64,000 nucleotides of DNA from Parcubacteria group bacterium Gr01-1014_30 (GTDB lineage: Bacteria > Patescibacteriota > Minisyncoccia > Minisyncoccales > 2-12-FULL-40-12): positions 10,768 through 74,767 of the forward strand of contig VMFS01000001.1 of the NCBI GenBank assembly GCA_007376185.1. The letters run 5' to 3'. A program made the translations under genes and the position numbers. Below the pieces are notes generated by a model. The model saw only the letters and a list, made by a program, of their open reading frames with translations. It did no database searches and was not told the origin of the DNA. Shown in pieces: positions 5,187 through 48,204 of this stretch. How positions within the stretch are numbered: position 1 is the first letter of the stretch; each line of letters starts with the position of its first letter.

Positions 5187-5187
5187 G

Positions 5188-32917: not shown

Positions 32918-32989
32918 TACAACTTCCAGTGCGTTTTTCCAAAGAGAAACACAAAACCGCCGGAGGCGACTGGAAGATGATATACGGGG
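32910..32989 (+). repeat. Hairpin element, copy 1 (CCCCGTAATACAACTTCCAG ... GCGACTGGAAGATGATATACGGGG)
   Basis: The termini are identical to the reverse complement of 34891-34960; the interior differs. Confidence 0.7.
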
Positions 32990-32990
32990 T

Positions 32991-33320: not shown

Positions 33321-34565
33321 ATGCAATTCGTCGCTGACTTTCATATACACTCAAAATACTCGAGAGCGACCTCAAAGGAGATGAACTTGGAACAGCTTGA
33401 CAAGTGGGCAAAGCTAAAAGGCATTAAGGTTTTAAGTTGTGGCGACTTCACGCATCCAGAATGGTTCAAAGAGCTGAAAGAAAAATTGGAGGAACAAGAG
33501 CCCGGGCTTTATAAACTGAAGAATTCCGCCAGCGGCACCAGGTTTATTCTTACGACAGAAATCAGCTGTATTTACTCAAAAAAAAATAAAGTTCGTAAAA
33601 TCCACATTTTGATTTTCGCTCCTTCGCTTGAGTCGGCGGAAAAAATTAACGCTAACTTGAGCTGGATAGGCAACCTGAAAGCTGACGGCAGGCCCATTTT
33701 GGGAATTGACGCAAAAGAGCTGGCCAAAATTGTCTTGAACGTTTCAGAAGAATGTTTAGTCGTTCCGGCTCATGCGTGGACGCCTTGGTTCAGCATCTTC
33801 GGGTCAAAATCCGGTTTTGACTCAATTGAAGAATGTTTTGAAGAATACTCCAAATATATTTACGCCATTGAAACAGGTTTATCAAGCTCGCCAGGTATGA
33901 ACTGGCGGTTGTCGACTCTAGATAAAATAACTCTTATTTCAAACAGCGACAGCCACTCTGCCAGAAAAATAGGCAGGGAAGCAAACGTTTTTGACACAGA
34001 ACTTTCTTTTGCCGCAATCGCTGAAGCTATAAAGAATAAAAACCCGCAAAAACTTTTATACACGGTTGAGTTTTTCCCCGAGGAAGGAAAATACCATTGG
34101 GACGGCCATCGTCTTTGCCAAGTAAGTTTGGCGCCTGAGGAGTCAAAAAAATCACAAAACATTTGCCCAAAATGCGGTAAAAACTTAACGATCGGTGTGC
34201 TGAACAGGATTGAGGAATTAGCCGACAGGCCAGATGGTTCAAAGCCACCCCAAGCCATCCCCTTCAAAAGCTTGATTCCTTTAGAGGAAATAATTGCCGA
34301 CGCTCTGGGCGTATTGCCAGGCGCCAAACAAGTTGAGTCTGAATACAAAACCTTAACTGAAAAATTTGGTTCTGAGTTTGAAGTTTTGCTGAACGTTTCT
34401 CGCCAAGATTTAGAAAAGGCCTCATCTTCAAAAATAGCTGAAGGCGTTGAAAGAGTGCGAGAGGGCAAAGTTCAAATTTCTCCGGGCTACGACGGTGTTT
34501 ACGGGAAAATTAAAATTTTCTCTGAAGGCAAACCAGCACCGTCAAGTCAAAAGTCGCTTTTTTAA
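33321..34565 (+). CDS. Endonuclease Q-like PHP-domain nuclease
   Basis: 414 aa. DFHIHSKYSRATS, VPAHAWTPWFS, SNSDSHS, GKYHWDGHR, and zinc finger CPKCGKNLTIGVLNRIEELAD, collinear with archaeal/Bacillus EndoQ. Confidence 0.8.
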   Translation: MQFVADFHIHSKYSRATSKEMNLEQLDKWAKLKGIKVLSCGDFTHPEWFKELKEKLEEQEPGLYKLKNSASGTRFILTTEISCIYSKKNKVRKIHILIFAPSLESAEKINANLSWIGNLKADGRPILGIDAKELAKIVLNVSEECLVVPAHAWTPWFSIFGSKSGFDSIEECFEEYSKYIYAIETGLSSSPGMNWRLSTLDKITLISNSDSHSARKIGREANVFDTELSFAAIAEAIKNKNPQKLLYTVEFFPEEGKYHWDGHRLCQVSLAPEESKKSQNICPKCGKNLTIGVLNRIEELADRPDGSKPPQAIPFKSLIPLEEIIADALGVLPGAKQVESEYKTLTEKFGSEFEVLLNVSRQDLEKASSSKIAEGVERVREGKVQISPGYDGVYGKIKIFSEGKPAPSSQKSLF

Positions 34566-34825: not shown

Positions 34826-34890
34826 GTAATTTGAGTGTTAAATAAAAAGCGACCTTTTTTGACTTCTAAGCCGCTTTCTACTTAACTTTG

Positions 34891-34960
34891 CCCCGTATAT
34901 CATCTTCCAGTCGCCTGCGGCGATTTGCGCGCGGAGCGCGCTGGAAGTTGTATTACGGGG
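34891..34960 (-). repeat. Hairpin element, copy 2 (inverted relative to copy 1)
   Basis: CCCCGTATATCATCTTCCAGTCGC ... GCTGGAAGTTGTATTACGGGG. Confidence 0.7.
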
Positions 34961-35308
34961 CTTTGGCTTTTTAAGCTTACTTAAGATATCCAACGACTTA
35001 TACTGTCTAGAGCCATTATACACTACTCAAAAGAAATGTCAACTGCTCTGTGTATCTTTACAGTACGGCTCGAAACCATTTTCTGAAAAATTGCTAACGC
35101 AATTTTGAAACTTCTCCAAATCCGCTCGGGTGCGGCGGAAGGAGGGGGCAAAAAGAAAAAGGGATAATAATTTGGAAAGAAATTCGCGAAGTTCTTTTTT
35201 CGTTTTGGCTTGATTATTATTGACATTTCTTGTAATGTGATTTTGGTATTAAGCCCGATTGTCGGGCTTAAATCGTACATTCCCAACTAAAAACAGGAGG
35301 ACAGCGAC

Positions 35309-36148
35309 ATGAATGACCGAAACTTCCGACAGATGCTGGAAGCCCAGTGGTCTCGCGGCAATTTCGTCTGCGTCGGACTCGACAGCGAGTTTGGCAAGAT
35401 TCCAGAATCGGTAAAAACGGATCGTCGGGAGGACTACATAGAGACCGTAGTTGACTTCAACAACAAGATCGTTGAGGCAACGAAAGACCTCGTGTGCGCC
35501 TACAAGCCGAACGCCGCGTTTTACGAGGCGCACGGCGTAGAGGGTATGAGAGCTTTGCGCCATACGATCGAGAACATCCATCTGATGGCGCCAGACGTTC
35601 CGGTGATTCTCGACGCGAAGCGCGCGGACATCGGCAATACCAACGCGGGCTACGTGGATGCGGCATTCGGCTTTCTGCGTGCGGACGCAATCACAGTGCA
35701 TCCGTATCTCGGAGCCGAAGCGCTTCAGCCATTCCTCGCACGAGCGGAGAAGGGTGTCATCGTGCTTTGTCGCACTTCCAATCCGGGCGCGGGCGAGTTT
35801 CAGGATTTGTCCGTGAACGGCGAGCCGCTCTATCGCTTCGTCGCGCGTCGTGTAGCAAGCGAGTGGAACAAGAACGGCAACTGCGCGCTCGTCGTGGGCG
35901 CAACGTATCCCGATGAACTCCGCGAAGTCCGCGGACTCGTCAGCGATATGCCGATTCTCATTCCGGGCATCGGCGCGCAAGGTGGCGACGTGGAGAAGAC
36001 CGTTTCCGCGGGCAAGAACAGCCGCGGACAGGGCATGATCGTGAACTCCTCGCGTGGCATCATCTTCGCCTCGAAAGGCGCGGACTTCGCGGAAGTGGCT
36101 CGACGCGAGACCGAGAAGCTCCGCGATCTCATCAACCAGCACCGATAG
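35309..36148 (+). CDS. pyrF: Orotidine 5'-phosphate decarboxylase (long, type 2)
   Basis: 279 aa. NFVCVGLDSE, ILDAKRADIGNT, PGIGAQGG. SD AGGAGG at 35295-35300. Confidence 0.9.
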   Translation: MNDRNFRQMLEAQWSRGNFVCVGLDSEFGKIPESVKTDRREDYIETVVDFNNKIVEATKDLVCAYKPNAAFYEAHGVEGMRALRHTIENIHLMAPDVPVILDAKRADIGNTNAGYVDAAFGFLRADAITVHPYLGAEALQPFLARAEKGVIVLCRTSNPGAGEFQDLSVNGEPLYRFVARRVASEWNKNGNCALVVGATYPDELREVRGLVSDMPILIPGIGAQGGDVEKTVSAGKNSRGQGMIVNSSRGIIFASKGADFAEVARRETEKLRDLINQHR

Positions 36149-36163
36149 AAAGGAGGTGAAATC

Positions 36164-36799
36164 ATGAACGAGCAAGAAGTTCTGCAAGTCCTCGGCAAGG
36201 TCGGAGCGGTCATCGCCGACAGCCACATCGTCTACACGTCAGGGCTACACGGCACGGCATACGTCAACAAGGATGCGGTCTATCCGCACACTGCGGAAAC
36301 GTCCCGCCTCTGCCGCGCAATCGCCGAGCGGTTCGCGGATGACAACGTGCAAGTGGTCATCGCCCCAGCAATCGGCGGCGTGATTCTCTCGCAGTGGACG
36401 GCACATCATCTCTCCGAAATGAACGGCCACGAAGTGTTCGGAGTCTACGCCGAGAAGTCCGAAGGCGGAGACGCCTTCGTCATCAAGCGTGGCTACGACA
36501 AGCTCATCGCTGGCAAGAATGTTCTGGTGGTGGAAGATGTTCTCACCACTGGCGGCTCTGCCAAGAAAGTGGTCGAAGCCACGCGAGCCATCGGCGGCAA
36601 CGTCGTTGGTCTCGGAGTCCTCTGCAACCGCGGAGGAATCACGCCGCAAGATGTGGCAGACGTTCCGAAGCTCACATCGCTCGTGAACGTGAAGCTCGAC
36701 GCGTGGGACGAGGCAACTTGTCCGCTTTGCGAGCAGAACGTTCCGGTCAACACGGATGTCGGCAAGGGGCGCGAGTTCCTCGCACGCAAGCAAGCATGA
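36164..36799 (+). CDS. pyrE: Orotate phosphoribosyltransferase
   Basis: 211 aa. PRPP-binding motif VLVVEDVLTTGGS. SD AAGGAGGTGA at 36150-36159. Confidence 0.9.
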   Translation: MNEQEVLQVLGKVGAVIADSHIVYTSGLHGTAYVNKDAVYPHTAETSRLCRAIAERFADDNVQVVIAPAIGGVILSQWTAHHLSEMNGHEVFGVYAEKSEGGDAFVIKRGYDKLIAGKNVLVVEDVLTTGGSAKKVVEATRAIGGNVVGLGVLCNRGGITPQDVADVPKLTSLVNVKLDAWDEATCPLCEQNVPVNTDVGKGREFLARKQA

Positions 36800-36817
36800 A
36801 TCCGCAACGGGTTCCAC

Positions 36818-36856
36818 GGGTTCGCTATCGTAAGGTAGCGAACCCTTTTTCTTTTT
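36818..36856 (+). terminator. Rho-independent terminator after pyrE
   Basis: GGGTTCGCTA / TAGCGAACCC 10-bp stem followed by TTTTTCTTTTT. Confidence 0.75.
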
Positions 36857-36880
36857 GTAGAAATTTCAAGGAGCAAATTT

Positions 36881-36933
36881 ATTGCGAAAACAAATTTTTT
36901 CAGCTATCATTTAGTTGTATTTGTTTTCGCAAT
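36881..36933. repeat. Perfect 15-bp inverted repeat
   Basis: ATTGCGAAAACAAAT (36881-36895) and ATTTGTTTTCGCAAT (36919-36933), with a 23-nt loop. Confidence 0.7.
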
Positions 36934-37127
36934 TGTCGGCGCAGAGTAAATCAAGCTATACACTTAAATTACTCTCAATGAGCTTGTCCAACAGCTTAGA
37001 GGGCGGGGCGGGTCTACCTTGGGGTGGTTATACAACAGACCCAGGGCTCCTGTTCCCCTCCTTTAGGAGGGTGGACAGGAGAACTCGCGAAGCGAGTTTA
37101 ATTAACGAAGTAATTTTGCGGGCTCTA

Positions 37128-37583
37128 TTATAGCGGGCAATCAACCACTGCCCAGCCGCCGTCTGCCAAACCAGTCCACTCCATTACTCCGATTACATCA
37201 AAGAACAAGCTGACAATTATCCAAGCGGCGTAAATCAAAACCAATCCGATTATTGTCCAAGTGAAGGTTTGCTTGGCTCTTGAAAGCAAAGCTGGACCCC
37301 CCTCTCCTCCCTTTGCCACCACGCCAAAGTAGGCAAACACATACATAAACCCGCCGATGGCTATCATTAAAATGGCTAAGGGTGGAACAATCCTGGTTAA
37401 AAGGTACTGAACTACGTTTTGGAAAAGAACAAAGATGTGACAAAGCTGACACGCTGGCTCATCTTGCCCTCCGCAAGGCACGAGCCCAGCCGCAAAAGAA
37501 ACCAAAGGCATGAGCAAGATTCCCAGAATAATCGTTATAAACAAAATTGAAAATTGAAAATTGAAAATTGAAAATTTCCCCAT
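37128..37583 (-). CDS. VirB2/TrbC-like 'pilin' membrane protein
   Basis: 151 aa. Signal-like N-terminus, Cys pairs (CGG..ACQLC), and two long hydrophobic helices around a GGEGGP loop. Same architecture as the N-termini of ORFs 57367 and 62762. Confidence 0.6.
   Translation of the reverse strand: MGKFSIFNFQFSILFITIILGILLMPLVSFAAGLVPCGGQDEPACQLCHIFVLFQNVVQYLLTRIVPPLAILMIAIGGFMYVFAYFGVVAKGGEGGPALLSRAKQTFTWTIIGLVLIYAAWIIVSLFFDVIGVMEWTGLADGGWAVVDCPL
37543..37577. repeat. Heptanucleotide tandem repeat (AAAATTG x4 plus AAAATTT) inside codons 3-14 of the pilin-like gene
   Basis: Read directly. The coding strand is ATTTTCA x4, giving FSIFNFQFSI. Confidence 0.85.
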
Positions 37584-37659
37584 GGTGCGCCTGGTAGGAT
37601 TCGAGCCTACAGCCTGCGGTTCCGAAGACCGCCGCTCTATCCGGTTGAGCTACAGGCGC
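37583..37659 (-). tRNA. tRNA-Arg (anticodon UCG), CCA encoded
   Basis: GCGCCTG-TA-GCTC..GAGC-G-GCGGT-CT[TCG]GA-ACCGC-AGGCT-GTAGG-CTCGAAT-CCTAC-CAGGCGC-A-CCA. Confidence 0.9.
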
Positions 37660-37699
37660 GCAAGCCTACTCTACCACAAAAATTGAAAAAAACAAGAAA

Positions 37700-37815
37700 A
37701 TCAATTAGAATTAGGAATAAAGAATGGGAATTTTGAATAAAGAATTTAGAGAAACCCCCTTTATTCTGAACCCTATATTCTCACCCTTAATTCTTAATTC
37801 ATAATTCTGTATTCT
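37700..37815. repeat. GAAT-word palindromic intergenic element
   Basis: AGAATTAGGAATAAAGAATGGGAATTTTGAATAAAGAATTTAGAG ... CTTTATTCTGAACCCTATATTCTCACCCTTAATTCTTAATTCATAATTCT. Arms are imperfect. Confidence 0.45.
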
Positions 37816-37830
37816 TGTTTGCGTTTTAAC

Positions 37831-39279
37831 ATGAAAATCCCTGCCCAAGTAAAAGAAGTTATTAACAAATTACAGAAAAGCGACTTTGAGGCCTACGTTG
37901 TCGGCGGGTGCGTGAGGGATTTGTTGCGCGGCGTGGAACCTGGCGATTGGGATGTGGCGACTTCGGCAAAACCAGAAGAAATTCAAAAAGTATTTCCGAA
38001 AAGTTTTTATAGCAACCAATTCTTCACGGTAACAGTTCAAACTGGCGGCACCAAAGCCCAACTTAAAGAAGTGGAAGTTACGACTTTCAGGAAAGAGGCA
38101 AAATATACCGACAAAAGACACCCAGACAAAGTTGAGTTCGCCAACTCGCTTAAAGAGGACTTGGCAAGGAGAGATTTCACTATAAACGCAATAGCCGCTG
38201 ACAGTAAACTTGAAATAACCGATCCTTTCTCGGGGCAAAAAGATCTTAAAAGTAAAGTTATTCGGTCTGTTGGAAATCCGCAAGATCGCTTTAATGAAGA
38301 CGCTTTGAGAATGATGAGAGCTGTCCGGTTGGCTACGGCTTTGGGGTTCGCTATCGAGCCAAAAACGGCTGACGCAATTAAAAAAAACTCTCCCTGGCTG
38401 CAGGCGATTTCCAAGGAAAGAATCAGAGACGAATTCGTAAAAATCGTTATGACAGAAAAGGCGGCAGAGGGCGTGGAACTGTTAAGAGAGCTTGGCCTTT
38501 TAAGATATATTGTTCCAGAATTGGAAGAGGGCTACGGAGTGGGGCAAAACAAACACCACATTTACGACTGCTATCACCACAACCTTTATGCCCTAAAGTA
38601 TGCCGCTCAACAGAACTTCAGCAGAGACGTTCGTCTGGCCTCCCTACTGCACGACATAGCCAAGCCGAGGGTGAAAAAAGGAGAAGGGCCCGATTCTACT
38701 TTTTACAATCACGAGGTCGTTGGCGCCAAAATGACGGCTCAAATTTTAAGCCGCTTGAGGTTTGCCAAAAAAGACATTGAAAAAATAGCCAAGCTTGTCA
38801 GATACCATCTTTTTTACTACAATGTCGGCGAAGTAGGGACATCCTCGGTAAGACGGCTGGTAAGGCAGGTGAGCCCTGAAAATATGGAAGAGCTTTTGCA
38901 GGTGAGACAGGCAGACAGAATCGGCTCTGGAGTTCCCAAGGCAGAACCCTACAAATTGAGGCACTTAAAGTACTTGATTGAAAAAGTGAGCAAAGATCCC
39001 ATCTCTCCGAAAATGCTCAAAGTTTCTGGCAACGACGTAATGAAGGTTTTGAAAATAGGGCAAGGGCCAAGAGTGGGGCAAGTTTTGGACGTTCTGCTCG
39101 GCTATGTGCTGGAAGACCCGAAGAAAAACAAGCGGGATTTTTTGGAAAAAGAAATTGAAAAACTGGGTAAGCTATCCGACGAAAAATTAAAAAAATTATC
39201 CGAAATCTCCAGAAAAGAAAGAGAAAAACTGGAAACAAAAAGGGACAAAATGACAAAGAAGAAATATTGGGTTACTTAA
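37831..39279 (+). CDS. cca: CCA-adding enzyme (tRNA nucleotidyltransferase with HD domain)
   Basis: AYVVGGCVRDLLRG..DWDVAT, RDFTINA, HD region LLHDIAKP. ATG at 37831 is preferred over the TTG at 37819. Confidence 0.9.
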   Translation: MKIPAQVKEVINKLQKSDFEAYVVGGCVRDLLRGVEPGDWDVATSAKPEEIQKVFPKSFYSNQFFTVTVQTGGTKAQLKEVEVTTFRKEAKYTDKRHPDKVEFANSLKEDLARRDFTINAIAADSKLEITDPFSGQKDLKSKVIRSVGNPQDRFNEDALRMMRAVRLATALGFAIEPKTADAIKKNSPWLQAISKERIRDEFVKIVMTEKAAEGVELLRELGLLRYIVPELEEGYGVGQNKHHIYDCYHHNLYALKYAAQQNFSRDVRLASLLHDIAKPRVKKGEGPDSTFYNHEVVGAKMTAQILSRLRFAKKDIEKIAKLVRYHLFYYNVGEVGTSSVRRLVRQVSPENMEELLQVRQADRIGSGVPKAEPYKLRHLKYLIEKVSKDPISPKMLKVSGNDVMKVLKIGQGPRVGQVLDVLLGYVLEDPKKNKRDFLEKEIEKLGKLSDEKLKKLSEISRKEREKLETKRDKMTKKKYWVT

Positions 39280-39371
39280 TCCGAAGGATTAAGTAAGGGT
39301 TCTATCATTGGGGAGTTTATATAATGAACCCAGGGGTGTCGCACCCCTCTGGAAGAGGGGGAAGGCACATA

Positions 39372-39442
39372 CGGGGCATAGTATACCGGCAGTACACACC
39401 CTTCGGGAGGGTGAAGATTGAGTTCAATTCTCAATGCCCCGA
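39372..39442 (+). tRNA. tRNA-Pro (anticodon CGG), no encoded CCA
   Basis: CGGGGCA-TA-GTAT..GTAC-A-CACCC-TT[CGG]GA-GGGTG-AAGA-TTGAG-TTCAATT-CTCAA-TGCCCCG-A. Confidence 0.85.
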
Positions 39443-39443
39443 C

Positions 39444-39517
39444 GGGCCATTAGTATAGTGGCAATACACCGCATTCGCATTGCGGAGACGTGAGTTCGAT
39501 TCTCACATGGTCCACCA
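39444..39517 (+). tRNA. tRNA-Ala (anticodon CGC), CCA encoded, G3:U70
   Basis: GGGCCAT-TA-GTAT..ATAC-A-CCGCA-TT[CGC]AT-TGCGG-AGAC-GTGAG-TTCGATT-CTCAC-ATGGTCC-A-CCA. Confidence 0.9.
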
Positions 39518-39583
39518 TTTCAGATTTGGGTCGGAAGTTGCCTCGCGGAGTTTATCCCGCACCGAGCTTGCTCTGGTGCGGGG

Positions 39584-39669
39584 CTCGGCGACCAAATCAT
39601 AAGGTTTTCTGGGCGAAAAAACCAGTTGGCGATTCTGTTTTTGGGAAAAGAAAATTTTTAATCATATAT
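39584..39669 (+). repeat. Cassette left-boundary / leader element, copy B
   Basis: CTCGGCGACCAAATCATAAGGTTTTCTGGGCGAAAAAACCAGTTGGCGATTCTGTTTTTGGGAAAAGAAAATTTTTAATCATATAT|ATG. Matches 10844-10926 (-). Confidence 0.65.
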
Positions 39670-40185
39670 ATGCAAGAAAATTTTTACGATATTTTACCGT
39701 ATATAGTTCTAGTTTTGGTTATTATATCTTTCATAGAGAATCGTAATCGTATTATAGAAAAAGAAAAGGCATATACTTTTTTCAAACAAACAAAAAAGTT
39801 TTTTGTACTTTTCGCAGTCATTCAAAGTTCAATACTCTTATATCTACACTTTTTTGTATATCCGACACTCAACAATGCTTTTAGTGAATCTAATTCTACT
39901 TCTTTTCTTCTAAAAATCAGTCCTTACTCAACTTTTGTCATTATTCCCATTGTAATTGCTGTTACTCTCTTTGCTTATTTTTCAAAATCCATTGCGCAGG
40001 AGTTTGAAGAAAACCTAAAAAAGCATAAAGATGATGTAAAGATTAAGATTAGTGATCTAACCACTGGAAAACTTAAATTATTAATTAATTTAGTAATGTA
40101 CTTACCTCTTTTTGTCATAGTACTTTTTGTGCTTATACCTGGTTTCCAACTAATTTCAGTTGCATCAAATTGGCGGTTAAAGTAA
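39670..40185 (+). CDS. Small polytopic membrane protein (hypothetical)
   Basis: Start reset to MQENFYDILPYIVLVLVIISF; the listed ORF start at 39490 lies inside tRNA-Ala. AT-rich. Confidence 0.55.
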   Translation: MQENFYDILPYIVLVLVIISFIENRNRIIEKEKAYTFFKQTKKFFVLFAVIQSSILLYLHFFVYPTLNNAFSESNSTSFLLKISPYSTFVIIPIVIAVTLFAYFSKSIAQEFEENLKKHKDDVKIKISDLTTGKLKLLINLVMYLPLFVIVLFVLIPGFQLISVASNWRLK

Positions 40186-40189
40186 TTAT

Positions 40190-40597
40190 ATGAAAAAATT
40201 GATACTTAAATATCCTTTGGCTACTTGGATGAGTATAGGATACTTAATTTTTATCGCGATCTTATTTATCGGCATTTTTCTAAACCGTTTTGCTGTATTT
40301 GGTGAATTTGGAGACGCACTTAGTATGACATTTTTCCTTTGGCCATATCCATTAGTCCTAGCTTTGCAAACTTGGATAAATCCTAGTGGTATCAATTTTT
40401 TGTTATTTGCATATCCTCTTGGGCTTGGCTTGGTCATTTTTTTCGGATTTTACTTACAACGACTGCTTAAAATTTCTAATGAGTCACCGTATTCTCATGT
40501 GTGGTCAATTTTGTTATTTCCCATTCCTTTAATACTATTGCAGGTTTTTGTTGCTGGGTTTGTATATTTTGTTTTGGGTTTACCGATTGGGGAGTAA
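40190..40597 (+). CDS. Small polytopic membrane protein (hypothetical)
   Basis: 135 aa with about 4 hydrophobic helices. No family recognised. Confidence 0.5.
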   Translation: MKKLILKYPLATWMSIGYLIFIAILFIGIFLNRFAVFGEFGDALSMTFFLWPYPLVLALQTWINPSGINFLLFAYPLGLGLVIFFGFYLQRLLKISNESPYSHVWSILLFPIPLILLQVFVAGFVYFVLGLPIGE

Positions 40598-40630
40598 TTT
40601 TTTAATCATGGCCTGTCACCTTTAACTATT

Positions 40631-40975
40631 ATGGAAGACACACCAAGTAATAACCAAAATCAACAATATTCTTCAAAGCCGGGAAAGATTCTTGCATATC
40701 TTTTTCTTAGTGCTTCAGTGGTAGTTTCTGGTTTGTTCTTTTTTAGTAAATGGGCAATTAACGCAGAATCATTTGGAAAATATGATCTGGGCTATGGGAT
40801 ATTTTTTTCATTTGTTTTTGCTTCTCTCATTTATGTCTCCTTGGGACTTGCCTTTCTTAGTTTTCTGGCAGCGCTGATAAATTTTTTCCGCCATCGCCCA
40901 GTTCGAATATATCTTTTGAGCATGGTTCTTGCATTGTTACCGATGGGCTATCTATTTTTGATTGATATAATATAG
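40631..40975 (+). CDS. Small membrane protein (hypothetical)
   Basis: 114 aa with 3 hydrophobic helices after a polar N-terminus. Confidence 0.5.
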   Translation: MEDTPSNNQNQQYSSKPGKILAYLFLSASVVVSGLFFFSKWAINAESFGKYDLGYGIFFSFVFASLIYVSLGLAFLSFLAALINFFRHRPVRIYLLSMVLALLPMGYLFLIDII

Positions 40976-40982
40976 GGATAAG

Positions 40983-41148
40983 TATTTTGCCGCCAAAGAA
41001 AAACTTGAAATTGTCCTCAGTAGTAGAAGCTACGCTTCACTACGGGTCAGGCATTAGCGCGGCGGAGCCGCAACTTCGGAATTTCGCGGGAGGCTTTCCT
41101 CGCCGCCTGCGGCGGCGAAAACCGTCCGAACTATTTCAAGAATAGACC
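40983..41148 (+). repeat. Cassette right-boundary element, copy B (with an extra internal segment of about 45 nt)
   Basis: TTGCCGCCAAAGAAAAACTTGAAATTGTC ... TTCGGAATTT ... CTCGCCGCCTGCGGCGGCGAA ... CGTCCGAACTATTTCAAGAATAGACCA. Confidence 0.65.
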
Positions 41149-41149
41149 A

Positions 41150-41995
41150 TAAGAGTTATCCACATTGAACCCACAGACCTTCAGAAGGCCGCATAAAATC
41201 TATATTTTCAAGGCCCTCTCAATCCCCGAGACGAGCCTGATTTTCGGGAACTAGACCCCTGGGGATAAGTTGAACCGGTGACGCTGGTCAGGTATCGGCT
41301 GATTGTGAAGTACATTGAGGCGATGCGCGACTGGGAGTTGTGCCCTTGTTGAATTCTGACGCCGTGCTATTCTCAAAGTAGTGAATGAAGGACTTCTGGG
41401 CGCCCCACAGATGATCACTTGTATCGTCATGTCAGCGAACGGTGGCCCTAGGCCAAGCTTGCCAACATCCGTTTGTTTGGTGCTACGAGGTGCGCGATCT
41501 CCTTCGAAGCGTCCCTGATACAACATATGTCCAAACGAGCTCTAAAGATCTCACTAATCGTCCTTATCGTTGCGGCCGCAGCCACAGTGATCTTGATGAC
41601 CAGGACCGAGAAGCCTCTCGAGTCGCCGCCGGATTCCAAAGATCTCATCCGAGATTCCTCTGTCACCGACTCAAACCGCACCGTTTCAAATCGTCAGGCT
41701 GACCTGTCAGTCCGCAATGAGGACGCTATATCGCGCTCACGTGGTCTCCTGAGGAAAGCGCAATTGAATATGCTGTTTCCGCGCTCTCTCGATAGACGGT
41801 CCCTGGGAGGAGCTCTTTCGGAGGCCTGGCGCTCGACCCAATAGTGTCGATTTCACGCCGGAAGCCACCGAGCGAGAGCTGTGTTATAAGGTCGAGGGTC
41901 TAGATGCGAGCGGCAAGATGATTCGCGGTTACGAACCAGTCTGTGTGCCGCCATTCGTGGGAAGCCACAGCCATGAGGAGTAAAGTGAGTTCTGA
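41150..41995. other. GC-rich fragment 3 (compositionally foreign; boundaries approximate)
   Basis: GC visibly higher than the AT-rich cassette on its left and the aminotransferase gene on its right. Confidence 0.5.
41527..41983 (+). pseudogene. Frameshifted gene for a membrane-anchored protein (hypothetical)
   Basis: The first frame reads MSKRALKISLIVLIVAAAATVILMTRTEKPLESP.... A protein-like continuation ...DGPWEELFRRPGARPNSVDFTPEATERELCYKVEGLDASGKMIRGYEPVCVPPFVGSHSHEE* lies in the +1 frame with no start codon of its own. Confidence 0.35.
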
Positions 41996-42055
41996 CTTTT
42001 TCAAGCAAACACCACAATAATTATAAAACTAAAAGAATCAGACAAAAAATTTCTG

Positions 42056-43204
42056 GTGAGAGATTTACCGGCAGAGGATTTGGAAATCATAAAATCTGAC
42101 GGCAATTTTTTGTTTGATTCCAAAAGCAAAAAATACATAGACTTTTTGATGGGCTGGTGCGTTGGAAATATCGGCTGGAACAACAAGGAAGTAAAAAAGA
42201 GGCTCAGCCAGTACAAGGGGCCTGATTATGTAAATCCTGCCTTTTTGTATAAATCGTGGGCGGAATTAGCGGAGCTCCTGGCAAAAATTACGCCCGGAAA
42301 ATTGCAAAAGAGTTTTCGCGCCACCGGCGGCACCGAAGCTGTGGAAATTGCGCTCCAAGCGGCAATGTCGCACACAAAGAGACATAAATTTATATCTATA
42401 GAAGGCAGTTATCACGGCCATTCAATTGGCGCCATGAGCGTTGGTTCTTCTGATTTTCGCAGTTGGTACAGCAACCTTCTGCCCGATTGCTACAAATTAG
42501 AACCGCCGCTTGACGAGAAAGCGGCAGATAAGCTTGAGGAACTTCTTAGAAAAGGCGGCATCGCCGCCCTGATTATGGAGCCGGTAATTTGCAACTTAGG
42601 CGTAGAAATTCCAACAGCGGAGTTTATGAATCGCGCCAAAGACCTATGTAAGCAATATGGCGCACTTCTCATTATGGACGAGGTGGCCACCGGTTTTGGC
42701 AGAACAGGAAAACTTTTTGCGTCAGAACACTATGGAATTGAACCGGATGTTATGTGTTTGGCAAAAGGTATCACGGGTGGATATGGCGGGTTGGGCGCTA
42801 CCATTGCAATAGAGGAGGTTGCAAAATCTATGGAGTACGAATTTAGTTTTTATTCAACATATGGCTGGCACCCCTTAAGCGTAGAGGCGGCTATTGCAAA
42901 TATCAAATATATTGTGAAGCACAAAAAGCAGTTGGAGAAAAACACAAATGAGATGAGTAAATATTTTGTTGAGCGCCTTTCACGAATGAAATTCAAATAT
43001 CCCGCAAAAATTCGCGCAAAGGGTTTGGCAATCGGTGTGGAATTTGAGCGAGCCGGATATGCCAATGAGATCATGAAAAGAGCTCAAGAGAAAGGTGTTT
43101 TGTTCTCGCCTTTAAGCGACAAAATATTTACTCTATTCCCTGCTTTGAATATTGACCATGAAACCGCTCGGAAAGGACTAAATATTATTGAAGAATGTCT
43201 GTAA
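42056..43204 (+). CDS. Class-III (PLP-dependent) aminotransferase
   Basis: GGTEAVEIALQ, IMDEVATGFGRTGKLFA, and LAKGITGG containing the PLP lysine. Confidence 0.85.
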   Translation: MRDLPAEDLEIIKSDGNFLFDSKSKKYIDFLMGWCVGNIGWNNKEVKKRLSQYKGPDYVNPAFLYKSWAELAELLAKITPGKLQKSFRATGGTEAVEIALQAAMSHTKRHKFISIEGSYHGHSIGAMSVGSSDFRSWYSNLLPDCYKLEPPLDEKAADKLEELLRKGGIAALIMEPVICNLGVEIPTAEFMNRAKDLCKQYGALLIMDEVATGFGRTGKLFASEHYGIEPDVMCLAKGITGGYGGLGATIAIEEVAKSMEYEFSFYSTYGWHPLSVEAAIANIKYIVKHKKQLEKNTNEMSKYFVERLSRMKFKYPAKIRAKGLAIGVEFERAGYANEIMKRAQEKGVLFSPLSDKIFTLFPALNIDHETARKGLNIIEECL

Positions 43205-43271
43205 ATCTTTGGCGTCAAAAAATTTGGCCAAAGCACTTGTTGGTTTCGGCTGATGAGTTATTGAAATAAAT

Positions 43272-44189
43272 ATGAAAAAAATAATATTTTCAATACTGAT
43301 AATCGCACTGGTATTTTTTGTACTGATAGTTATCGGGGAAAATAGGTTTGAAAATCCGATAATGGTTTTGGACGATGTTGATTCAAGCCCAGTTCCCGGA
43401 GAACCGGGACTCGCCAGAGTAAATGAGTCGGGCTGGTCGGTTCCTGTAAAGCTCGGATTCAATGACATCGGCTGGGAAGATTCAAGCTATATAACCAAGG
43501 ACGGTAGATATGTTTTGTTTTTTTACCATCCGACTCCGAGCCAGTTTGACGAGGAGGCAAAAAAAGCCACCGGCGTAAATGACGGAAGAATCTATTTTAG
43601 TAAAAGGCCGTTCACCACAAAGGAACTTCATCCTGCTTCCAAGCCAGGCTTTCCTTCGGACGGCGGACCCTACATAGCCCAGAACGGCGATTTTTATTAT
43701 ATGAGCATCGGGATTTTTAAACCGCTTAGAATAGTGAAAAATGGAAAGAGGTTGAACTTGGGTACCGGAGATGAAGAAAGTAATCCGCACTATTGTGATG
43801 CCGAAGATGAATTATATTTCGATTCCCCGGACGGCCAAAGAATAGCGGTTCATAAAAACGGCGAAACCACGTTTTTACCTGAACCGATAAACGTACCCGG
43901 CACTCAAAATTTTCAGGCTTTTGTCGCCGACGATTGCCAGACGATGTATTTTACTTCAACAAGGGACGCCAGTGAGGGGATACTTCCTTTACAGGTTTAT
44001 AAATCACAGAGACTCGGGGAATTTAAATGGAGCCAGCCGCAGCTGTTTCTGATTTATCCCGGAACAGGAGGGGTGGGAGAATTTTCAATGACAAGGGACG
44101 GCAATCAAATAGTGTTCACTCAAATGGCCCGCGATGCAGACGGAGTTTTTAGAAATAATATATATTATGCCGAGAGAGTCAGAAATTAA
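43272..44189 (+). CDS. N-terminally anchored extracytoplasmic protein (hypothetical)
   Basis: Signal/anchor MKKIIFSILIIALVFFVLIVIG. Repeated short D/G-rich strands hint at a beta-propeller, but no motif is secure. Confidence 0.5.
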   Translation: MKKIIFSILIIALVFFVLIVIGENRFENPIMVLDDVDSSPVPGEPGLARVNESGWSVPVKLGFNDIGWEDSSYITKDGRYVLFFYHPTPSQFDEEAKKATGVNDGRIYFSKRPFTTKELHPASKPGFPSDGGPYIAQNGDFYYMSIGIFKPLRIVKNGKRLNLGTGDEESNPHYCDAEDELYFDSPDGQRIAVHKNGETTFLPEPINVPGTQNFQAFVADDCQTMYFTSTRDASEGILPLQVYKSQRLGEFKWSQPQLFLIYPGTGGVGEFSMTRDGNQIVFTQMARDADGVFRNNIYYAERVRN

Positions 44190-44324
44190 TTTATTAGGAG
44201 GGGAATCTTTTATCCATGCGCGTCGTGTTGATGTTGCCGAACTCGAAACGATTGGTGTGAAGGTGAAAAAGTTTACCGTGACAAACAGAAAAAATGATAT
44301 AATATCAACGAGATAACAAAAAAT

Positions 44325-45023
44325 ATGAAATACATTAAACAAGTCATCACAAAGAAAAACTTGCTTTTTATCGCGATTTTTGCTCTCATCGGCTTTGCCG
44401 CGCTGCAAATTCCGGTGGCGCAACTGGAAGGATCCAAGGCAAAGTTCACGGTCTATGACGCTTTTGCTCCCATAGCCGGAGCTTTTATAGGGAGCGTGCC
44501 AGGAGTTATCGCTGTCTTTTTAATGCAGTTTTTCAATTTTCTAGTTAAAGGAGCGCAAATAGCTGATGCAGGCACAATCATCAGGTTCTTTCCAATGCTT
44601 TTTGCCGTGCTCTACTTTGCCAAAAAAGGATGGCTTAACCTTGCCGTTCCGTTAATAGCGGCCGTAGCTTTCATAGCTAATCCTACAGGCCGCGAAGTTT
44701 GGTACTTTACGCTGTTTTGGACAATTCCGATAATTGTTTACTTTCTGCGCGACAGATTTTTGTTTGCCCGGGCCCTGGGCGCCACATTTTCAGCTCATGC
44801 TGTGGGCGGCGCCCTGTGGATTTGGACTTTCGCGCTTCCTGCTTCGGTTTGGCAAGGGTTAATACCGGTCGTCGCCACGGAACGCTTGCTATTTGCTGTT
44901 GGAATCAGCGTATCGTTCGTTCTTGTGAACAACCTTCTCTGTTTTTTGGAGAAAAAAGGCCTATTGCGTTTGGGCTTTAAAATTGACCAGAAATACCTTG
45001 CGCCTGTCTTGCGCAGCAGCTAA
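44325..45023 (+). CDS. Polytopic membrane protein (hypothetical transporter component)
   Basis: 232 aa with about 6 TM helices. TGaTATAAT extended -10 at 44295-44303. Confidence 0.55.
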   Translation: MKYIKQVITKKNLLFIAIFALIGFAALQIPVAQLEGSKAKFTVYDAFAPIAGAFIGSVPGVIAVFLMQFFNFLVKGAQIADAGTIIRFFPMLFAVLYFAKKGWLNLAVPLIAAVAFIANPTGREVWYFTLFWTIPIIVYFLRDRFLFARALGATFSAHAVGGALWIWTFALPASVWQGLIPVVATERLLFAVGISVSFVLVNNLLCFLEKKGLLRLGFKIDQKYLAPVLRSS

Positions 45024-45074
45024 AACAACTACCTAATACCTAACGCCCCCAATTGAGGGGAAGTTAAAAGTATT

Positions 45075-45683
45075 ATGAAAACAGTTTCAGGATCTAATAA
45101 GTCAAATTCTGATACCAACGAAAGTATTTCAGAGCAAAGCTCTACTTTAAGCGGCTTTAAGAATTGGAGACTAAAACACCCTATTTTATGGGCGGTTATA
45201 CTATCTGTGGCATTAATATTTATTACGAGATATATTGTCTATAATATTCCAGAGCTGGATTTACTCTATAGGATTACTCTATGGTTTATTGCGCCTATCC
45301 TTGTATTCGGTGCAATATATAAGCATTTGGCAAAAAGGCCTAAAGATATAGCAACTGACAGCTTAGAGGATGTCAATAGAATAAATAGAAAGCAGGCAAT
45401 TTTACTTCTTTTGCTACTTGCGTTAGAAATGCCATTGTTGCTTCTAAATTTATACGTGTTTATTGGTAACAAAGGCAGTATTTATGGAGATTATGGCGTT
45501 TTAACGTTTATATTCGGACTTACTTTATTTATGCCTAGTCTAATAGCCTTTATTATATTTCTACTCGGATATATAAAAGGAACTTTTAGACATTGGCAAC
45601 AACTAAGCAAGTATAATAGAGCGAGTTTCTTTATATTCTTATTTCAGTTCGTATTGTATTTAAAATTTCTAAACTATTTTTAA
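45075..45683 (+). CDS. Polytopic membrane protein (hypothetical)
   Basis: 202 aa, AT-rich, 4-5 TM helices. Confidence 0.5.
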   Translation: MKTVSGSNKSNSDTNESISEQSSTLSGFKNWRLKHPILWAVILSVALIFITRYIVYNIPELDLLYRITLWFIAPILVFGAIYKHLAKRPKDIATDSLEDVNRINRKQAILLLLLLALEMPLLLLNLYVFIGNKGSIYGDYGVLTFIFGLTLFMPSLIAFIIFLLGYIKGTFRHWQQLSKYNRASFFIFLFQFVLYLKFLNYF

Positions 45684-45684
45684 G

Positions 45685-46635
45685 ATGGATAAAGCGGCTT
45701 TCGTTGTATTAATAATTGTAACCGCCCTTTTAGGAGGAGGCATTATTTACTTTCACATAATTAGCAATACTCCCGCAGAAGATTTAATGGGTGTTGATTC
45801 AAATAATAATGGCGTAAGAGATGATGTTGAAGACTATATCAATAGTAAATTTTCAAAACCAGAAGAAGGGGAGGCATTAATGCAGTATGCCAAAAGGCTT
45901 CAACTACAAATGGCCTCTTATCAAAACCCTGAAGAATCTAACAGATTGAGAGTATCGTCTGATGATAGTTATATTGATTGCGCTGAATATATTTTTGGTC
46001 AAGATAGGGCATTTGATTTAACAGATGAGATAAATGAGGTTGTTATTAATACCCCAAGCAGGCAAAGAGCTTATGACCAATTTAATAGAAATCTTACTGG
46101 TGGGGTATTTGGTCTAGGAGAAGAGCCATCTATAAGTGATTGCGAATTCTACAATGACTTGATTGATGATTGGAAGCTTTATCGTAACGAGGAATATGGC
46201 TTTGAGTTTAAATATCCCGAACTGGGATTAAACCCAGCCGAGATTAATCAAGTCGGAAGCATGATAGAAGTTAAGTACTGGAGCGAACAACTAGATGAAC
46301 ACAGCCTCGTCTATACTATTTCTATAACAGAAAATGAGCAGGGTTTGGATCTATTTAACTGGTATACAACTAATATTGACCCGGAACGCATAGTCTACAA
46401 AAATTTAAATATTGATATTATACGGTTAAAGAGTGGCGCTGAAATGTATAAAATAAATACAAAAACGAAGCCAATTCCTAATGAATACCTAGATAAATAT
46501 GGGCCCATAGACGCTTTGGCCTATATTATGACTCCTGATGAGCGGTTTGTGTTAACAATATCTGGAAACCAAGAGACAGGCCTTAGCGATAAGGATCTAG
46601 ATCTAATTGTTTCAACCCTCAAATTCATTAAATAA
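45685..46635 (+). CDS. N-terminally anchored protein with WxxYRNxxYGFEFKYP domain
   Basis: 316 aa. The C-terminal module (DDWKLYRNEEYGFEFKYP...) is paralogous to the one in ORF 9983-10843. Confidence 0.55.
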   Translation: MDKAAFVVLIIVTALLGGGIIYFHIISNTPAEDLMGVDSNNNGVRDDVEDYINSKFSKPEEGEALMQYAKRLQLQMASYQNPEESNRLRVSSDDSYIDCAEYIFGQDRAFDLTDEINEVVINTPSRQRAYDQFNRNLTGGVFGLGEEPSISDCEFYNDLIDDWKLYRNEEYGFEFKYPELGLNPAEINQVGSMIEVKYWSEQLDEHSLVYTISITENEQGLDLFNWYTTNIDPERIVYKNLNIDIIRLKSGAEMYKINTKTKPIPNEYLDKYGPIDALAYIMTPDERFVLTISGNQETGLSDKDLDLIVSTLKFIK

Positions 46636-46784
46636 CTTTGCATTTTGATTTGTCACTTTGACTTTTAATTTTTGAATTTTCACAAAACTCTCTCAACACT
46701 TAATCTTATAGACAACATCTAAGTCTAAATCTCTTTTGCCCACTAGCTTGCCCTATTCGGTTTTTAGTGGTAGTTTTTATATAT

Positions 46785-47771
46785 ATGGAACAAATGGAAC
46801 AAACAAAAAAAACCGGCTTGCCCGCCGAAACTTCAGCGAAGGTGGGGCCAAAAGACGTGCTTTTGCATATCTTCGTCATTATCGCGCTATATACCAGCAT
46901 GATATCTTTGAGCGCGGTTTTGTTTGGACTGATAAACTTTTACTTTCCAGACCCTCTTTGGGAATATGGACGCTATTTACGAGACGCTTTAAGATGGCCC
47001 TTAGCCGTTCTTACGGTGATGTTTCCCCTGTACCTCTGGGCAAATATTTTTTTGCAAAAAGACGTAGTGCAATATCCTGAAAAAAAGACCCTAAAAACCA
47101 GAAGGTGGCTGCTCTACATCACTCTTTTAATCGCGGTCTTGGTGATAGCGGGAGATTTAATAGCCATAATTTTCAGATACCTCCAGGGAGAATTTACCAT
47201 AAGATTCTTCCTTAAAGCGGTGGCAGTGTTTTTGGTAGCGTCTTCGATTTTCCTATACTACGGTTGGAACGTACGCAAAGAAATTTCGGCGACCAAGGAC
47301 AAAAGAATGAATGTTTTTGTCAAAGGCGCGATTTTGCTGGCAATTGTGTCCATTGCTTTTGGCTATTTTACAACCGGCTCTCCGCAATCAGAAAGAATGC
47401 GCCGCTTTGACGAAAAAAGAGTTTCCGACCTTCAGCAAATCCAATATCAAATTATTGAGTTTTGGAGAGCTAAAAGAATACTACCCGCGTCTTTGGCGAA
47501 TCTAAGAGACGAATTGCGGGGCTTCATTCCGCCCAAAGACCCTGAAACAGGCAAGGAGTATGAATACAGAATAACTGGAGAGTTGTCTTTTGAACTCTGC
47601 GCCGATTTTAAAACGTCCAGCGAACAAGGCTTAAAAAACGCTGTCCCCGCCTATCGCCAACCTGTTGAAATGTTTCCAGGAGAAACCTGGCCTCATTCAC
47701 AAGGCATAGAGTGTTTCCAAAGAACCATAGACCCTGCATTTTACCCGCCTTTAGGTAAGACGATAGAGTGA
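46785..47771 (+). CDS. DUF5671-like membrane protein
   Basis: Start set at MEQMEQTKKT. Four TM helices (LLHIFVIIALYTSMISLSAVLFGLINFYFPD...) and a C-terminal soluble domain. Confidence 0.55.
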   Translation: MEQMEQTKKTGLPAETSAKVGPKDVLLHIFVIIALYTSMISLSAVLFGLINFYFPDPLWEYGRYLRDALRWPLAVLTVMFPLYLWANIFLQKDVVQYPEKKTLKTRRWLLYITLLIAVLVIAGDLIAIIFRYLQGEFTIRFFLKAVAVFLVASSIFLYYGWNVRKEISATKDKRMNVFVKGAILLAIVSIAFGYFTTGSPQSERMRRFDEKRVSDLQQIQYQIIEFWRAKRILPASLANLRDELRGFIPPKDPETGKEYEYRITGELSFELCADFKTSSEQGLKNAVPAYRQPVEMFPGETWPHSQGIECFQRTIDPAFYPPLGKTIE

Positions 47772-47786
47772 ACAAAAAAGAGTTTT

Positions 47787-48167: not shown

Positions 48168-48204
48168 AGTGCTTTAAGGCACTTTTTTTATTTTGGAAAA
48201 AGGG

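Follow-up and report, generated by a model that had tools for sequence, protein, structure and literature searches.

A tRNA-anchored cassette in a Parcubacteria genome, probably a recombinase-less member of a family of large serine recombinase elements

The stretch of DNA analysed here (below, the window) comprises 64,000 nt from Parcubacteria group bacterium Gr01-1014_30 (contig VMFS01000001.1, positions 10,768 to 74,767) and carries, directly behind a tRNA-Ala(cgc) gene, a 1.6-kb insert at 39518-41149 that we call cassette B. This cassette is most probably an integrated, recombinase-less (non-autonomous) member of a family of elements in Patescibacteria that are equipped with a large serine recombinase (LSR) and target the ends of tRNA genes. 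Members of the family are units of 1-3 kb located at the exact 3' ends of tRNA and transfer-messenger RNA (tmRNA) genes. The evidence consists of the anatomy of the insert, the identity of its boundaries (arms) with parts of recombinase-bearing elements, the association of these elements with tRNA 3' ends, their sporadic occupancy, the occurrence of the same cassettes at different loci, and purifying selection on the cargo genes. A sister copy, cassette A, is found in the same window beside the tmRNA gene.

Anatomy of cassette B and of the elements that share its arms

Cassette B follows the CCA of tRNA-Ala(cgc) (39444-39517, plus strand), its anchor, which is itself preceded by tRNA-Pro(cgg) (39372-39443, plus strand); these genes, like the tmRNA and tRNA-Arg genes mentioned below, were identified with ARAGORN and Rfam. 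The insert consists of 152 nt of non-coding DNA (39518-39669), three open reading frames (ORF1-3) in a cargo region at 39670-40975, and 174 nt of non-coding DNA (40976-41149). The non-coding stretches recur on the 3' side of the tmRNA gene (10967-11315, minus strand), on the minus strand and with order and orientation kept: a repeat finder aligned 39583-39659 with 10851-10927 (77 nt, 81%), 40979-41015 with 9949-9985 (37 nt, 92%), and 41099-41149 with 9860-9910 (51 nt, 88%). An earlier reading of this DNA, made from the letters and their open reading frames (the sequence-only reading), had proposed a tRNA-anchored cassette with shared boundaries, and the recurrence of the arms around a different gene beside the tmRNA bears this out. 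The similarity of the arms is not due to chance, since each of them gave 118-123 BLAST matches among the loci fetched for comparison, the best at 92-97% identity.

The left arm begins at 39518, the base right after the CCA (junction GGTCCACCA/TTTCAG; here and below, a slash within a sequence marks a joint). Its outer part, L5', covers 39518-39637 (plus strand; nhmmer E = 6e-27), and its inner part, L3' (39639-39669, plus strand; TTTTGGGAAAAGAAAATTTTT...), precedes the ATG of ORF1; in autonomous copies of the element, L3' is the leader of the recombinase gene. A GC hairpin, in which CCCGCACC (39556-39563) pairs with GGTGCGGG (39575-39582), had been noticed earlier and is real, but it does not stand as a separate feature before the left element. 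Instead, 39556-39582 is an insertion nested in the loop of the L5' hairpin, a variant that is also present in L107, L182 and L173 (L numbers denote fetched loci).

The right arm starts with module X (GCCGCCAAAGAAAAACTTGAAATTGTC; 40989-41015, plus strand), which is 27 nt of the recombinase frame in sense orientation, encoding the residues AAKEKLEIV. It continues with a 40-nt hairpin insert private to copy B (41016-41055, plus strand) and with R3' of sub-class b (41056-41149, plus strand; nhmmer E = 4e-19). R3' contains one hairpin at 41059-41071 and a second, CTCGCCGCC-TGC-GGCGGCGA, at 41099-41118, and closes with the terminus GAATAGACCA at 41140-41149, the right end of the cassette. The sequence-only reading had described an extra segment of about 45 nt in the right element of copy B; this is not one insertion and is made up of a different R3' sub-class plus the 40-nt hairpin insert. 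X is located precisely after the cargo stop codon in every cassette. RNAalifold gave no consensus structure for 72 right arms, because the R3' sub-classes align poorly; the right-arm hairpins are described from the sequences alone.

The arms of cassette B are parts of a recombinase-bearing element. Metagenome loci were seeded with the 20-nt degenerate core of the left element, AAAAYCARTTGGCGATTYYG, and at least 120 contigs matched; in at least 100 metagenome contigs, the arms flank or form part of an LSR gene of ~490 aa. Inverted L5' pairs ~1430 nt apart were present in ~15 of the 80 matches listed first, and such pairs bound the recombinase unit only. In L090, the pair flanks a gene encoding a 492-aa LSR with the N-terminus YARKST, in which the catalytic, recombinase and zinc-ribbon domains are all recognizable (Pfam: PF00239 Resolvase, 3.5e-20; PF07508 Recombinase, 2.5e-16; PF13408 Zn_ribbon_recom, 5e-06). 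Its nearest structures in PDB, both distant, are the SPbeta SprA (SprA/YokA) and A118 integrases, and the best NCBIfam matches of the LSR, namely CcrB, XisF and CcrA, are all far below their cut-offs. The LSR family comprises at least 7081 sequence clusters at E <= 1e-30, and at least 120 clusters, mostly from short contigs, share 70-100% identity with the L090 protein. It is nearly absent from viruses, with two close, partial matches among 2.9 million viral contigs. A phage origin was also considered for the right arm and rejected, as an 18-nt right-arm pattern gave only chance, unrelated matches in viral contigs.

The modules of the element were defined on L090, where the right arm, L5', L3', the LSR gene, an inverted L5' and tRNA-Ala lie together, and were mapped in ~120 metagenome loci. 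L5' (~95 nt) begins where the tRNA CCA ends, and the final ~35 recombinase residues are encoded on its opposite strand, the stop codon being inside the tRNA gene; L3' (~30 nt) is the leader before the recombinase ATG. Within the recombinase gene, X (GCCGCCAAAGAAAAACTTGAAATTGTC) corresponds to codons ~31-39, the 17-nt hairpin P to codons 40-46, Y to codons 47-53, and Cf to codons ~445-457. R3' (~90 nt) is hairpin-rich and ends in ...GAATAGACCA(CCA). In these terms, the left element in the window is L5' plus L3' and the right element is X plus R3', and the X of the window is identical to the recombinase codons.

These modules occur in several architectures. In Type 1, represented by both A and B, the order is tRNA, L5', L3', cargo, X, R3' (also in L083, L088, L092, L093, L094 (twice), L101, L113, L127, L151, L165, L184 and others). 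In Type 2, which spans ~3 kb (L085, L086, L090, L105, L112, L114, L124, L125, L137, L152 and others), the tRNA and L5' are followed by the recombinase gene on the opposite strand, by inverted L3' and L5', which together serve as the leader of this gene, by inverted R3', and then by Y-Cf, L3', cargo, X and R3'; Y-Cf is a short, body-deleted recombinase remnant with the same deletion junction everywhere. The minimal form comprises a tRNA or tmRNA gene, L5', inverted Cf-Y, and R3' (L099, L102). Further forms are arrays of L3'-cargo-X-hairpin-Y-Cf units (four units in L107; also L133 and L179), a direct tandem of two Type 1 cassettes (L146), a body-deleted mini recombinase (L100, L180), and a recombinase codirectional with the tRNA (L172, L175). 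The codirectional form has L3', X, Y and Cf as direct repeats, from which Type 1 would arise by one deletion. Cassettes A and B both show the structure of a non-autonomous copy: the two arms of the element stand in the correct order and orientation around cargo only, and the recombinase that an autonomous copy has within the element is missing.

Hairpin P (L090 2966-2982 and 47 other recombinase genes) has 7 bp and a 3-nt loop and occupies the position where cassettes join X to the right arm. It has three arm versions, GCCTCGC with GCGAGGC, GCCTCTT with AAGAGGC, and GCTTCCT with AGGAAGC. Among the 48 copies (22 distinct rows), paired cells make up 99.4%, and compensatory double changes occur in three of the seven pairs; none of 500 shuffles reached these values. 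The arm changes alter the protein (ASLCEA versus ASFQEA, that is, LC versus FQ), and it is thus the nucleic-acid structure that appears to be selected. In cassettes, what comes after X is invariably either another GC hairpin, whose loop has 3 nt, or the imperfect palindrome AAGTTCAGGATTTCGGTTCGGAATTT, and the second hairpin of R3' likewise occurs in several self-complementary arm versions.

The cargo of cassette B comprises ORF1 (39670-40185; 171 aa, GC 0.283; NCBI hypothetical protein G01um101430_57), ORF2 (40190-40597; 135 aa; NCBI protein G01um101430_58) and ORF3 (40631-40975; 114 aa), all on the plus strand, for which a hydropathy count predicts ~4, ~3 and ~3 membrane spans, respectively. 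This agrees with the earlier description of three small polytopic proteins encoded by DNA more AT-rich than its surroundings, the GC content being 0.32 in the ORF1-3 cargo and 0.443 in the whole window. An ORF call at 39490-40185 starts within tRNA-Ala and is an artefact, as had been suspected; public gene calls take the 171-aa form. None of the three proteins has a Pfam family above the cut-off. One homologue was found for ORF1 (58% identity), 11 for ORF2 (49-75%), and one in L219 for ORF3 (58%). Compared with the L219 homologues, the ratio of nonsynonymous to synonymous substitution rates (dN/dS) is 0.25 for ORF2 and 0.19 for ORF3, which indicates purifying selection; therefore, both are real genes, and ORF3, uncalled in the ENA annotation of an identical contig, is probably a missed gene. 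L219 comes from a different organism in the same sample. There (2615-6891), the ORF3-like (58%) and ORF2-like (75%) genes are adjacent in the opposite order and lack cassette arms; they are flanked by a CopA-type P-type ATPase gene on one side and a 47-aa HMA gene on the other, with a cupredoxin gene upstream. ORF2 and ORF3 form a conserved pair, and its neighbours are only a hint that the pair may belong to metal homeostasis. In 45 cassettes of the family, the cargo is diverse, consists for the most part of membrane or secreted proteins, measures 0.5-1.6 kb and comprises one to three genes, with GC 0.31-0.52 and usually at least one membrane span. Its Pfam matches include type IV pilin-like proteins, subtilase, methyltransferases, the EamA transporter, YdjM, asparaginase, PRA isomerase and an IS200 transposase, and many cargo genes have no match.

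X is split by hairpin-rich inserts in several other loci: ~65 nt in L058 (8450-8545), L084 (53-154), L133 (3181-3280) and L155 (1998-2097), and ~37 nt in L088 (1880-1928), the last being related to window 41016-41055. Such inserts suggest a miniature hairpin element that targets these arms. Other identities were considered for the right arm and set aside. A small protein (from a TTG, 40987-41145, 52 aa; 37 aa in copy A, MPPKKNLKLS...SELFQE) was rejected, since the frame is kept between A and B but not in L001 or other copies, and since its N-terminal peptide consists of recombinase codons (X). An L20 leader (infC lies downstream in copy A) or another Rfam family gave no match at E <= 10; in general, the arms have no Rfam 15 match even at this level, and only tRNA and tmRNA reach the thresholds. 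A tRNA relic is not supported either: the arm has a tRNA-like ...GACCA(CCA) end and a partly T-loop-like segment, but no acceptor or T stems were seen by eye.

Insertion sites, related genomes and the second cassette

L5' was found directly 3' of the mature end of at least 22 tRNA species, including three for Ala, five for Leu, five for Arg, three for Val, two for Lys, and those for Ile and Gln, as well as of two tmRNAs. Each L5' subtype tends to go with a particular base ahead of CACCA, at the tRNA end as well as at the R3' terminus: the GACAGG or AACAGG subtype is preceded by CCACCA in 40 of 42 cases, and the GTAAGG subtype by GCACCA in 14 of 16. In Type 2, the R3' terminus abuts L5' as ...AGACCACCA/GACAGG..., the same joint as tRNA...CCACCA/GACAGG, and the outer R3' end always keeps ...AGAC plus CA, CAC or CACCA before an unrelated flank. 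The junctions of copy B are GGTCCACCA/TTTCAG on the left (attL) and ATAGACCA/TAAGAG on the right (attR), the right end reading GAATAGACCA/TAAGAG; those of copy A are CTCCACC/GGACAGG and AGACCAC/TTTTCAAC.

The cassette ends (L5' start TTTCAG... or GACAGG..., R3' end ...GAATAGACCA) are not mutual inverted repeats, and no target-site duplication was seen. The sequence-only reading had suggested looking for partial duplications of the tRNA-Ala 3' end as att sites beyond 41148. None is present there: the far end holds no direct repeat of the tRNA 3' segment, only CA(CCA) is common to both junctions, and ARAGORN detected no downstream tRNA fragment. No tyrosine integrase was identified in 39518-46700 by Pfam or in the gene list, and neither IntI nor attI was found in the window or in the related loci.

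The same cassette can be found in different contexts. A 1.5-kb subtilase cassette (L3' to R3') occurs in L083 (Type 1) and in L137 (Type 2) with 92% nucleotide identity, and its counterpart in L148, which likewise comes with the recombinase, is 81-86% identical; the flanks beyond R3' are unrelated, and the tRNA-proximal DNA is only 82% identical. Similarly, an EamA-transporter cassette is common to L092 (Type 1) and L112 (Type 2).

The accessory status of the insert was assessed in 80 related loci obtained via the gene of the CCA-adding enzyme at 37819-39279 (63-74% amino acid identity); an exact match to the protein of this gene is not on record, probably owing to a different choice of start codon. 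Their core order is tRNA-Lys(ctt), tRNA-Arg(tcg), CCA enzyme, tRNA-Pro(cgg), tRNA-Ala(cgc), and 0-8 kb separate the tRNA genes. ORF1-3, an aminotransferase gene and the next four ORFs are encoded in none of these 80 loci. Homologues of window 46767-47771 and 47787-48167 come next after tRNA-Ala in L001, the closest relative, and in many other relatives the UPF0102 gene (the homologue of 47787-48167) begins 1-2 nt past the tRNA discriminator (...GGTCCA/TATG). This absence in relatives makes window 39518-46700 (7.2 kb) lineage-specific, with cassette B as its tRNA-proximal layer; ORF1-3 are thus accessory and not conserved core genes, as had been anticipated. A hidden Markov model (HMM) search revealed L5' in five of the 81 related loci, namely in the window (twice), in L001 at tRNA-Lys, in L058 at tRNA-Arg, and in L080 and L050 at tRNA-Ala; single-linkage clustering of tRNA 3' flanks, which was inflated by neighbouring tRNA genes, was dropped in favour of this search.

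Two of the four tRNA-type genes of the window are occupied by such cassettes. The sequence-only reading regarded all three tRNA/tmRNA flanks that it discussed as accessory, which holds for tRNA-Ala and is too broad with respect to tRNA-Arg(tcg) (37583-37659, minus strand). The pilin-like gene there (37128-37583; Pfam T4SS_pilin) has homologues in 61 of the 80 related loci; where their position was checked, they lie in the tRNA-Lys/tRNA-Arg region, and in L001 directly 3' of tRNA-Arg. Since this gene is widely kept, the tRNA-Arg flank is not accessory.

Two features of the tRNA-Ala site in relatives deserve mention. The UPF0102/YraN start codon lies 1-2 nt past the discriminator of a tRNA gene without CCA in L002, L005, L006, L028, L040, L050 and L074, an unusually tight junction. 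Duplication of a tRNA 3' half is a classic footprint of integrases; tRNA-Ala 3'-half fragments follow the intact tRNA-Ala(cgc) gene in L024, L032, L052 and L072, and in L124 (88-148) L5' follows such a fragment and not a full tRNA. The fragments indicate that tRNA-Ala(cgc) is a hotspot for more than one kind of element.

Cassette A (9860-10966, minus strand) lies immediately 3' of the tmRNA, its anchor, and is followed by infC. Module mapping placed L5' at 10966-10875, L3' at 10870-10850, X at 9975-9949, and a right arm of sub-class a at 9948-9860, all on the minus strand. The cargo gene (10843-9983, minus strand) encodes 286 aa with a membrane anchor and is unrelated to ORF1-3; its C-terminal domain has a weak, PsbP_2-like match below the cut-off. 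Each of the two cassettes has arms that match copies elsewhere at 92-97% identity, against only ~80% between A and B, and the arms belong to different sub-classes on both sides; the two cassettes are therefore independent acquisitions and not products of internal duplication.

Downstream of cassette B lie 846 nt of GC-rich DNA (41150-41995), outside the cassette and within the lineage-specific 39518-46700, and then the aminotransferase gene from 42056. The GC-rich character of this flank, noted earlier, is evident (GC 0.533), but the foreign origin then ascribed to it is not established: its 105-aa ORF (41527-41844) has no homologue among 1.8 billion proteins, and the flank has no match to plasmids, Rfam or Pfam. 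The flank is present and identical in a second assembly. Cassette B is no assembly artefact, because an independent ENA contig is 100% identical to the window over 36942-50597.

Upstream of 36942, the ENA contig L218 (1-339) differs from the window. This part contains a tRNA-Lys(ctt)-like gene (read by eye), as in relatives, and also matches window 35148-35050 in reverse; window 35149-36941 instead holds GC-rich pyrF/pyrE (GC 0.59) without tRNA-Lys. Either the strains differ by a rearrangement, or one of the two assemblies contains a chimeric join. Elsewhere in the window, an IS200-like Y1 transposase gene (Pfam Y1_Tnp, 2.6e-11) adjoins smpB within 11847-13500 and is followed by a 1-kb GC-rich block (GC 0.586) with a 202-aa ORF (12844-13452, minus strand) without a Pfam match, a third GC-rich island in a window of 44% GC. 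Two neighbouring inverted-repeat pairs (45 nt, 87%; 25 nt, 96%) at 32909-32998 and 34882-34961 flank ~1.9 kb, including a 414-aa ORF (33321-34565), which could be an invertible or mobile segment. AT-rich intergenic repeats with GAATTT/CGAAAT-like units occur in both orientations at 25053-25153, 26814-26870, 48487-48623, 59637-60022 and 62648-62778.

Proposed route of integration and competing explanations

We propose that cassette B was integrated by way of a circular form carrying the joint right-arm...GACCA(CCA)/L5', which for this cassette would read ...CAAGAATAGACCA(CCA)/TTTCAGATTTGGGTCGG. Recombination of the circle would take place at the final bases of the tRNA gene (C72-A73, or the CCA if encoded), where the crossover is presumed to lie; L5' would thereby come to follow the tRNA, and the right arm would adjoin the former flank. 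The empty site reconstructed on this basis would be ...ATGGTCCA/TAAGAG, i.e., GGTCCA/TAAGAG (also written ...GGTCCA/TAAGAGTTATCC and ...CATGGTCCA/TAAGAGTTATCCACATTG), which fits relatives whose tRNA-Ala gene encodes no CCA. The recombinase part may then have been lost, for example by a deletion between directly repeated L3'/X modules; alternatively, the cassette may have arrived alone, mobilised by a recombinase encoded elsewhere. In its final place, the left arm would set the first cargo gene behind the recombinase leader, downstream of tRNA-Pro and tRNA-Ala, so that the cargo would probably be co-transcribed with these tRNA genes.

Several points weigh against this proposal. LSRs normally need two specific half-sites, and the presumed target lacks conservation on its flank side; only ~6-7 nt of the tRNA end match the element. 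The Y-Cf remnant, the X piece and the covarying hairpin P are not accounted for by a simple attP x attB integration. The fetched loci included no circular contig (no terminal overlap) and no circular junction or excision product, and tblastn for the LSR within the 64-kb window yielded nothing but an L5' remnant (10870-10971). The left arm showed no promoter of sigma-70-like type, so the route of expression suggested above is inferred. Finally, seeding with L5' biases the proportions of architectures and tRNA species, which are not population estimates, and partly builds in the association of L5' with the recombinase, though not that of X and the right arm. Nevertheless, we regard a recombinase-less member of this LSR element family as the probable explanation; it overlaps with the two readings considered next.

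The first of them, tentative at best, is that cassette B is a dead relic: a complete element would have lost its recombinase in situ, the arms would survive by recency, and the cassette would be immobile and functionless as a unit. In favour of this reading are the elements with a codirectional recombinase (L172, L175), where one deletion between the direct repeats of L3', X, Y and Cf would give the exact architecture seen in the window; recombinase remnants beside L5' (L107, L099, L102, L108) and the lack of a recombinase within the 64-kb window agree with it. Against it stand the 92-97% identity of the arms to copies elsewhere, the intact state of their hairpins, the occurrence of one cassette in unrelated genomic contexts, the presence of two cassettes of different arm sub-families in a single 64-kb window, and the purifying selection on the cargo.

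An integron-like system, which we consider unlikely, would treat X and the following hairpin as an attC-like site that is also present inside the recombinase gene as P. Circles (Y-Cf-L3'-cargo-X-hairpin) would be inserted to form arrays behind a tRNA platform, and cassette B would be a one-unit, three-gene array. The hairpins are the main reason for keeping this reading. P covaries, with arm changes that alter the encoded residues; X does not vary, whether in cassettes or in the recombinase gene; and the arm combinations X and Y, X and right arm, and inverted right arm and Y all occur around the hairpin, only the empty palindrome alone being missing. Arrays of L3'-cargo-X-hairpin-Y-Cf exist, as in L107, L133 and L179, but the four units of L107 carry paralogous pilin-like genes, and unequal crossing-over at the repeated boundaries would give the same picture. 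Moreover, the junctions keep no halves of P, unlike those expected from conservative recombination inside P; no circular cassettes were seen among the fetched contigs; and the cargo has one orientation in all of the at least 15 recombinase-bearing units. If the system nevertheless worked in this way, Patescibacteria would possess an LSR counterpart of the integron, in which one recombinase family makes essentially any tRNA or tmRNA 3' end a landing pad stocked with cassettes of one to three, mostly envelope, genes and the cassette site is a hairpin that also lies, with covarying arms, in the reading frame of the recombinase; this we hold to be doubtful. It is just as doubtful that A and B are stocked pads of such a system, expressed by tRNA read-through.

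More improbable still is a transposon similar to insertion sequences (IS), with the recombinase gene between terminal inverted repeats of ~95 nt (L5') and a TnpX/TndX-like serine transposase acting beside ...CCA ends, the cargo genes being passengers or by-products. Such a unit is suggested by the inverted L5' pairs described above, by the presence of the recombinase in both orientations relative to the tRNA, and by the fact that both unit ends abut a ...CCA-type sequence (the tRNA or the right-arm terminus). The cassettes of the window, with one L5' and a non-inverted right arm, are not bounded by repeats, however; no target-site duplication accompanies them, and in complete examples the recombinase unit always adjoins a right arm and a cargo cassette.

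The idea that the boundaries are ordinary regulatory DNA (promoter or leader, terminator), a segmental duplication or an assembly artefact can practically be dismissed: in both copies the left arm runs up to a start codon and a stop codon opens the right arm, where GC hairpins are present, but no terminator-like T-run follows these, the arms are pieces of the recombinase gene and its ends, they occur in at least 100 contigs of other organisms with unrelated cargo, those of A and of B each resemble foreign copies more than one another, and the independent ENA contig is identical over the region of cassette B.

Relation to known elements and significance

Cassette B has the structure of a non-autonomous integrative element and is not a tyrosine-integrase island, an integron, an IS or a miniature inverted-repeat transposable element (MITE). 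One of its closest parallels is offered by the staphylococcal cassette chromosome (SCC) and pseudo-SCC elements of staphylococci and enterococci, which are driven by the LSRs CcrA, CcrB and CcrC and occupy the 3' end of a housekeeping gene (rlmH/orfX); they also accrete in tandem, as in L146, and have recombinase-less derivatives that keep the ends. In contrast, SCC elements target one protein gene and measure 20-60 kb, whereas the units described here are 1-3 kb long and use many tRNA genes and tmRNA. Here, in addition, the recombinase gene overlaps the end sequence and the tRNA, the cassette ends hold pieces of the recombinase frame, and the hosts are Patescibacteria.

Islander-type tRNA/tmRNA islands and integrase-less cis-mobilizable elements (CIMEs) resemble the family in their tRNA/tmRNA 3' anchoring, accessory cargo, sporadic occupancy, and non-autonomous copies bounded by att arms. 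They rely on a tyrosine recombinase; the present elements have a serine recombinase, duplicate no tRNA 3' segment (~2-6 nt shared at most), would cross over at the very end of the tRNA and not in the anticodon or T-loop, and use at least 22 tRNA species within one family. Integrons (IntI, attI/attC) share small cassettes of one to three genes with diverse cargo, a hairpin-forming 3' boundary, arrays (as in L107) and a fixed upstream leader, but differ in enzyme class, and here each cassette has its own leader (L3') and the platform is the end of a tRNA gene. Tn4451/Tn4453 (TnpX) and Tn5397 (TndX) are likewise small elements with an LSR and a presumed circle joint resembling the target; they use GA dinucleotide targets and have neither inverted repeats of ~95 nt around the recombinase gene nor cassette modules. 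In SSV-type archaeal integrases, similarly, a recombination-associated sequence lies inside the recombinase frame and the gene overlaps the tRNA-side att arm; these, however, are tyrosine recombinases of archaeal viruses whose gene is split on integration, while here the gene is intact and short copies of X, Y and Cf stand at the borders. The searchable literature, which is incomplete, contained no description of these modules or of a patescibacterial LSR family targeting tRNA 3' ends, and the element family is provisionally considered undescribed.

For genome analysis, the arms give the exact borders of accessory DNA in the window. The elements also explain why contigs of metagenome-assembled genomes break at these repeats and why hypothetical genes beside tRNA genes in these genomes vary between strains. 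If the proposed mechanism is true, the family would represent a compact natural LSR cassette-delivery system whose target, a tRNA gene end, is unusually generic; it would be of interest both for the biology of the candidate phyla radiation and for genome engineering, in which LSRs already serve as tools. With their tiny genomes, Patescibacteria live attached to host cells, and little is understood of the ways in which they acquire and exchange surface functions. The evidence points to a family of high abundance among them, which would bring genes for envelope and secreted proteins, including pilins, subtilase, transporters and membrane proteins, to the ends of their tRNA genes.

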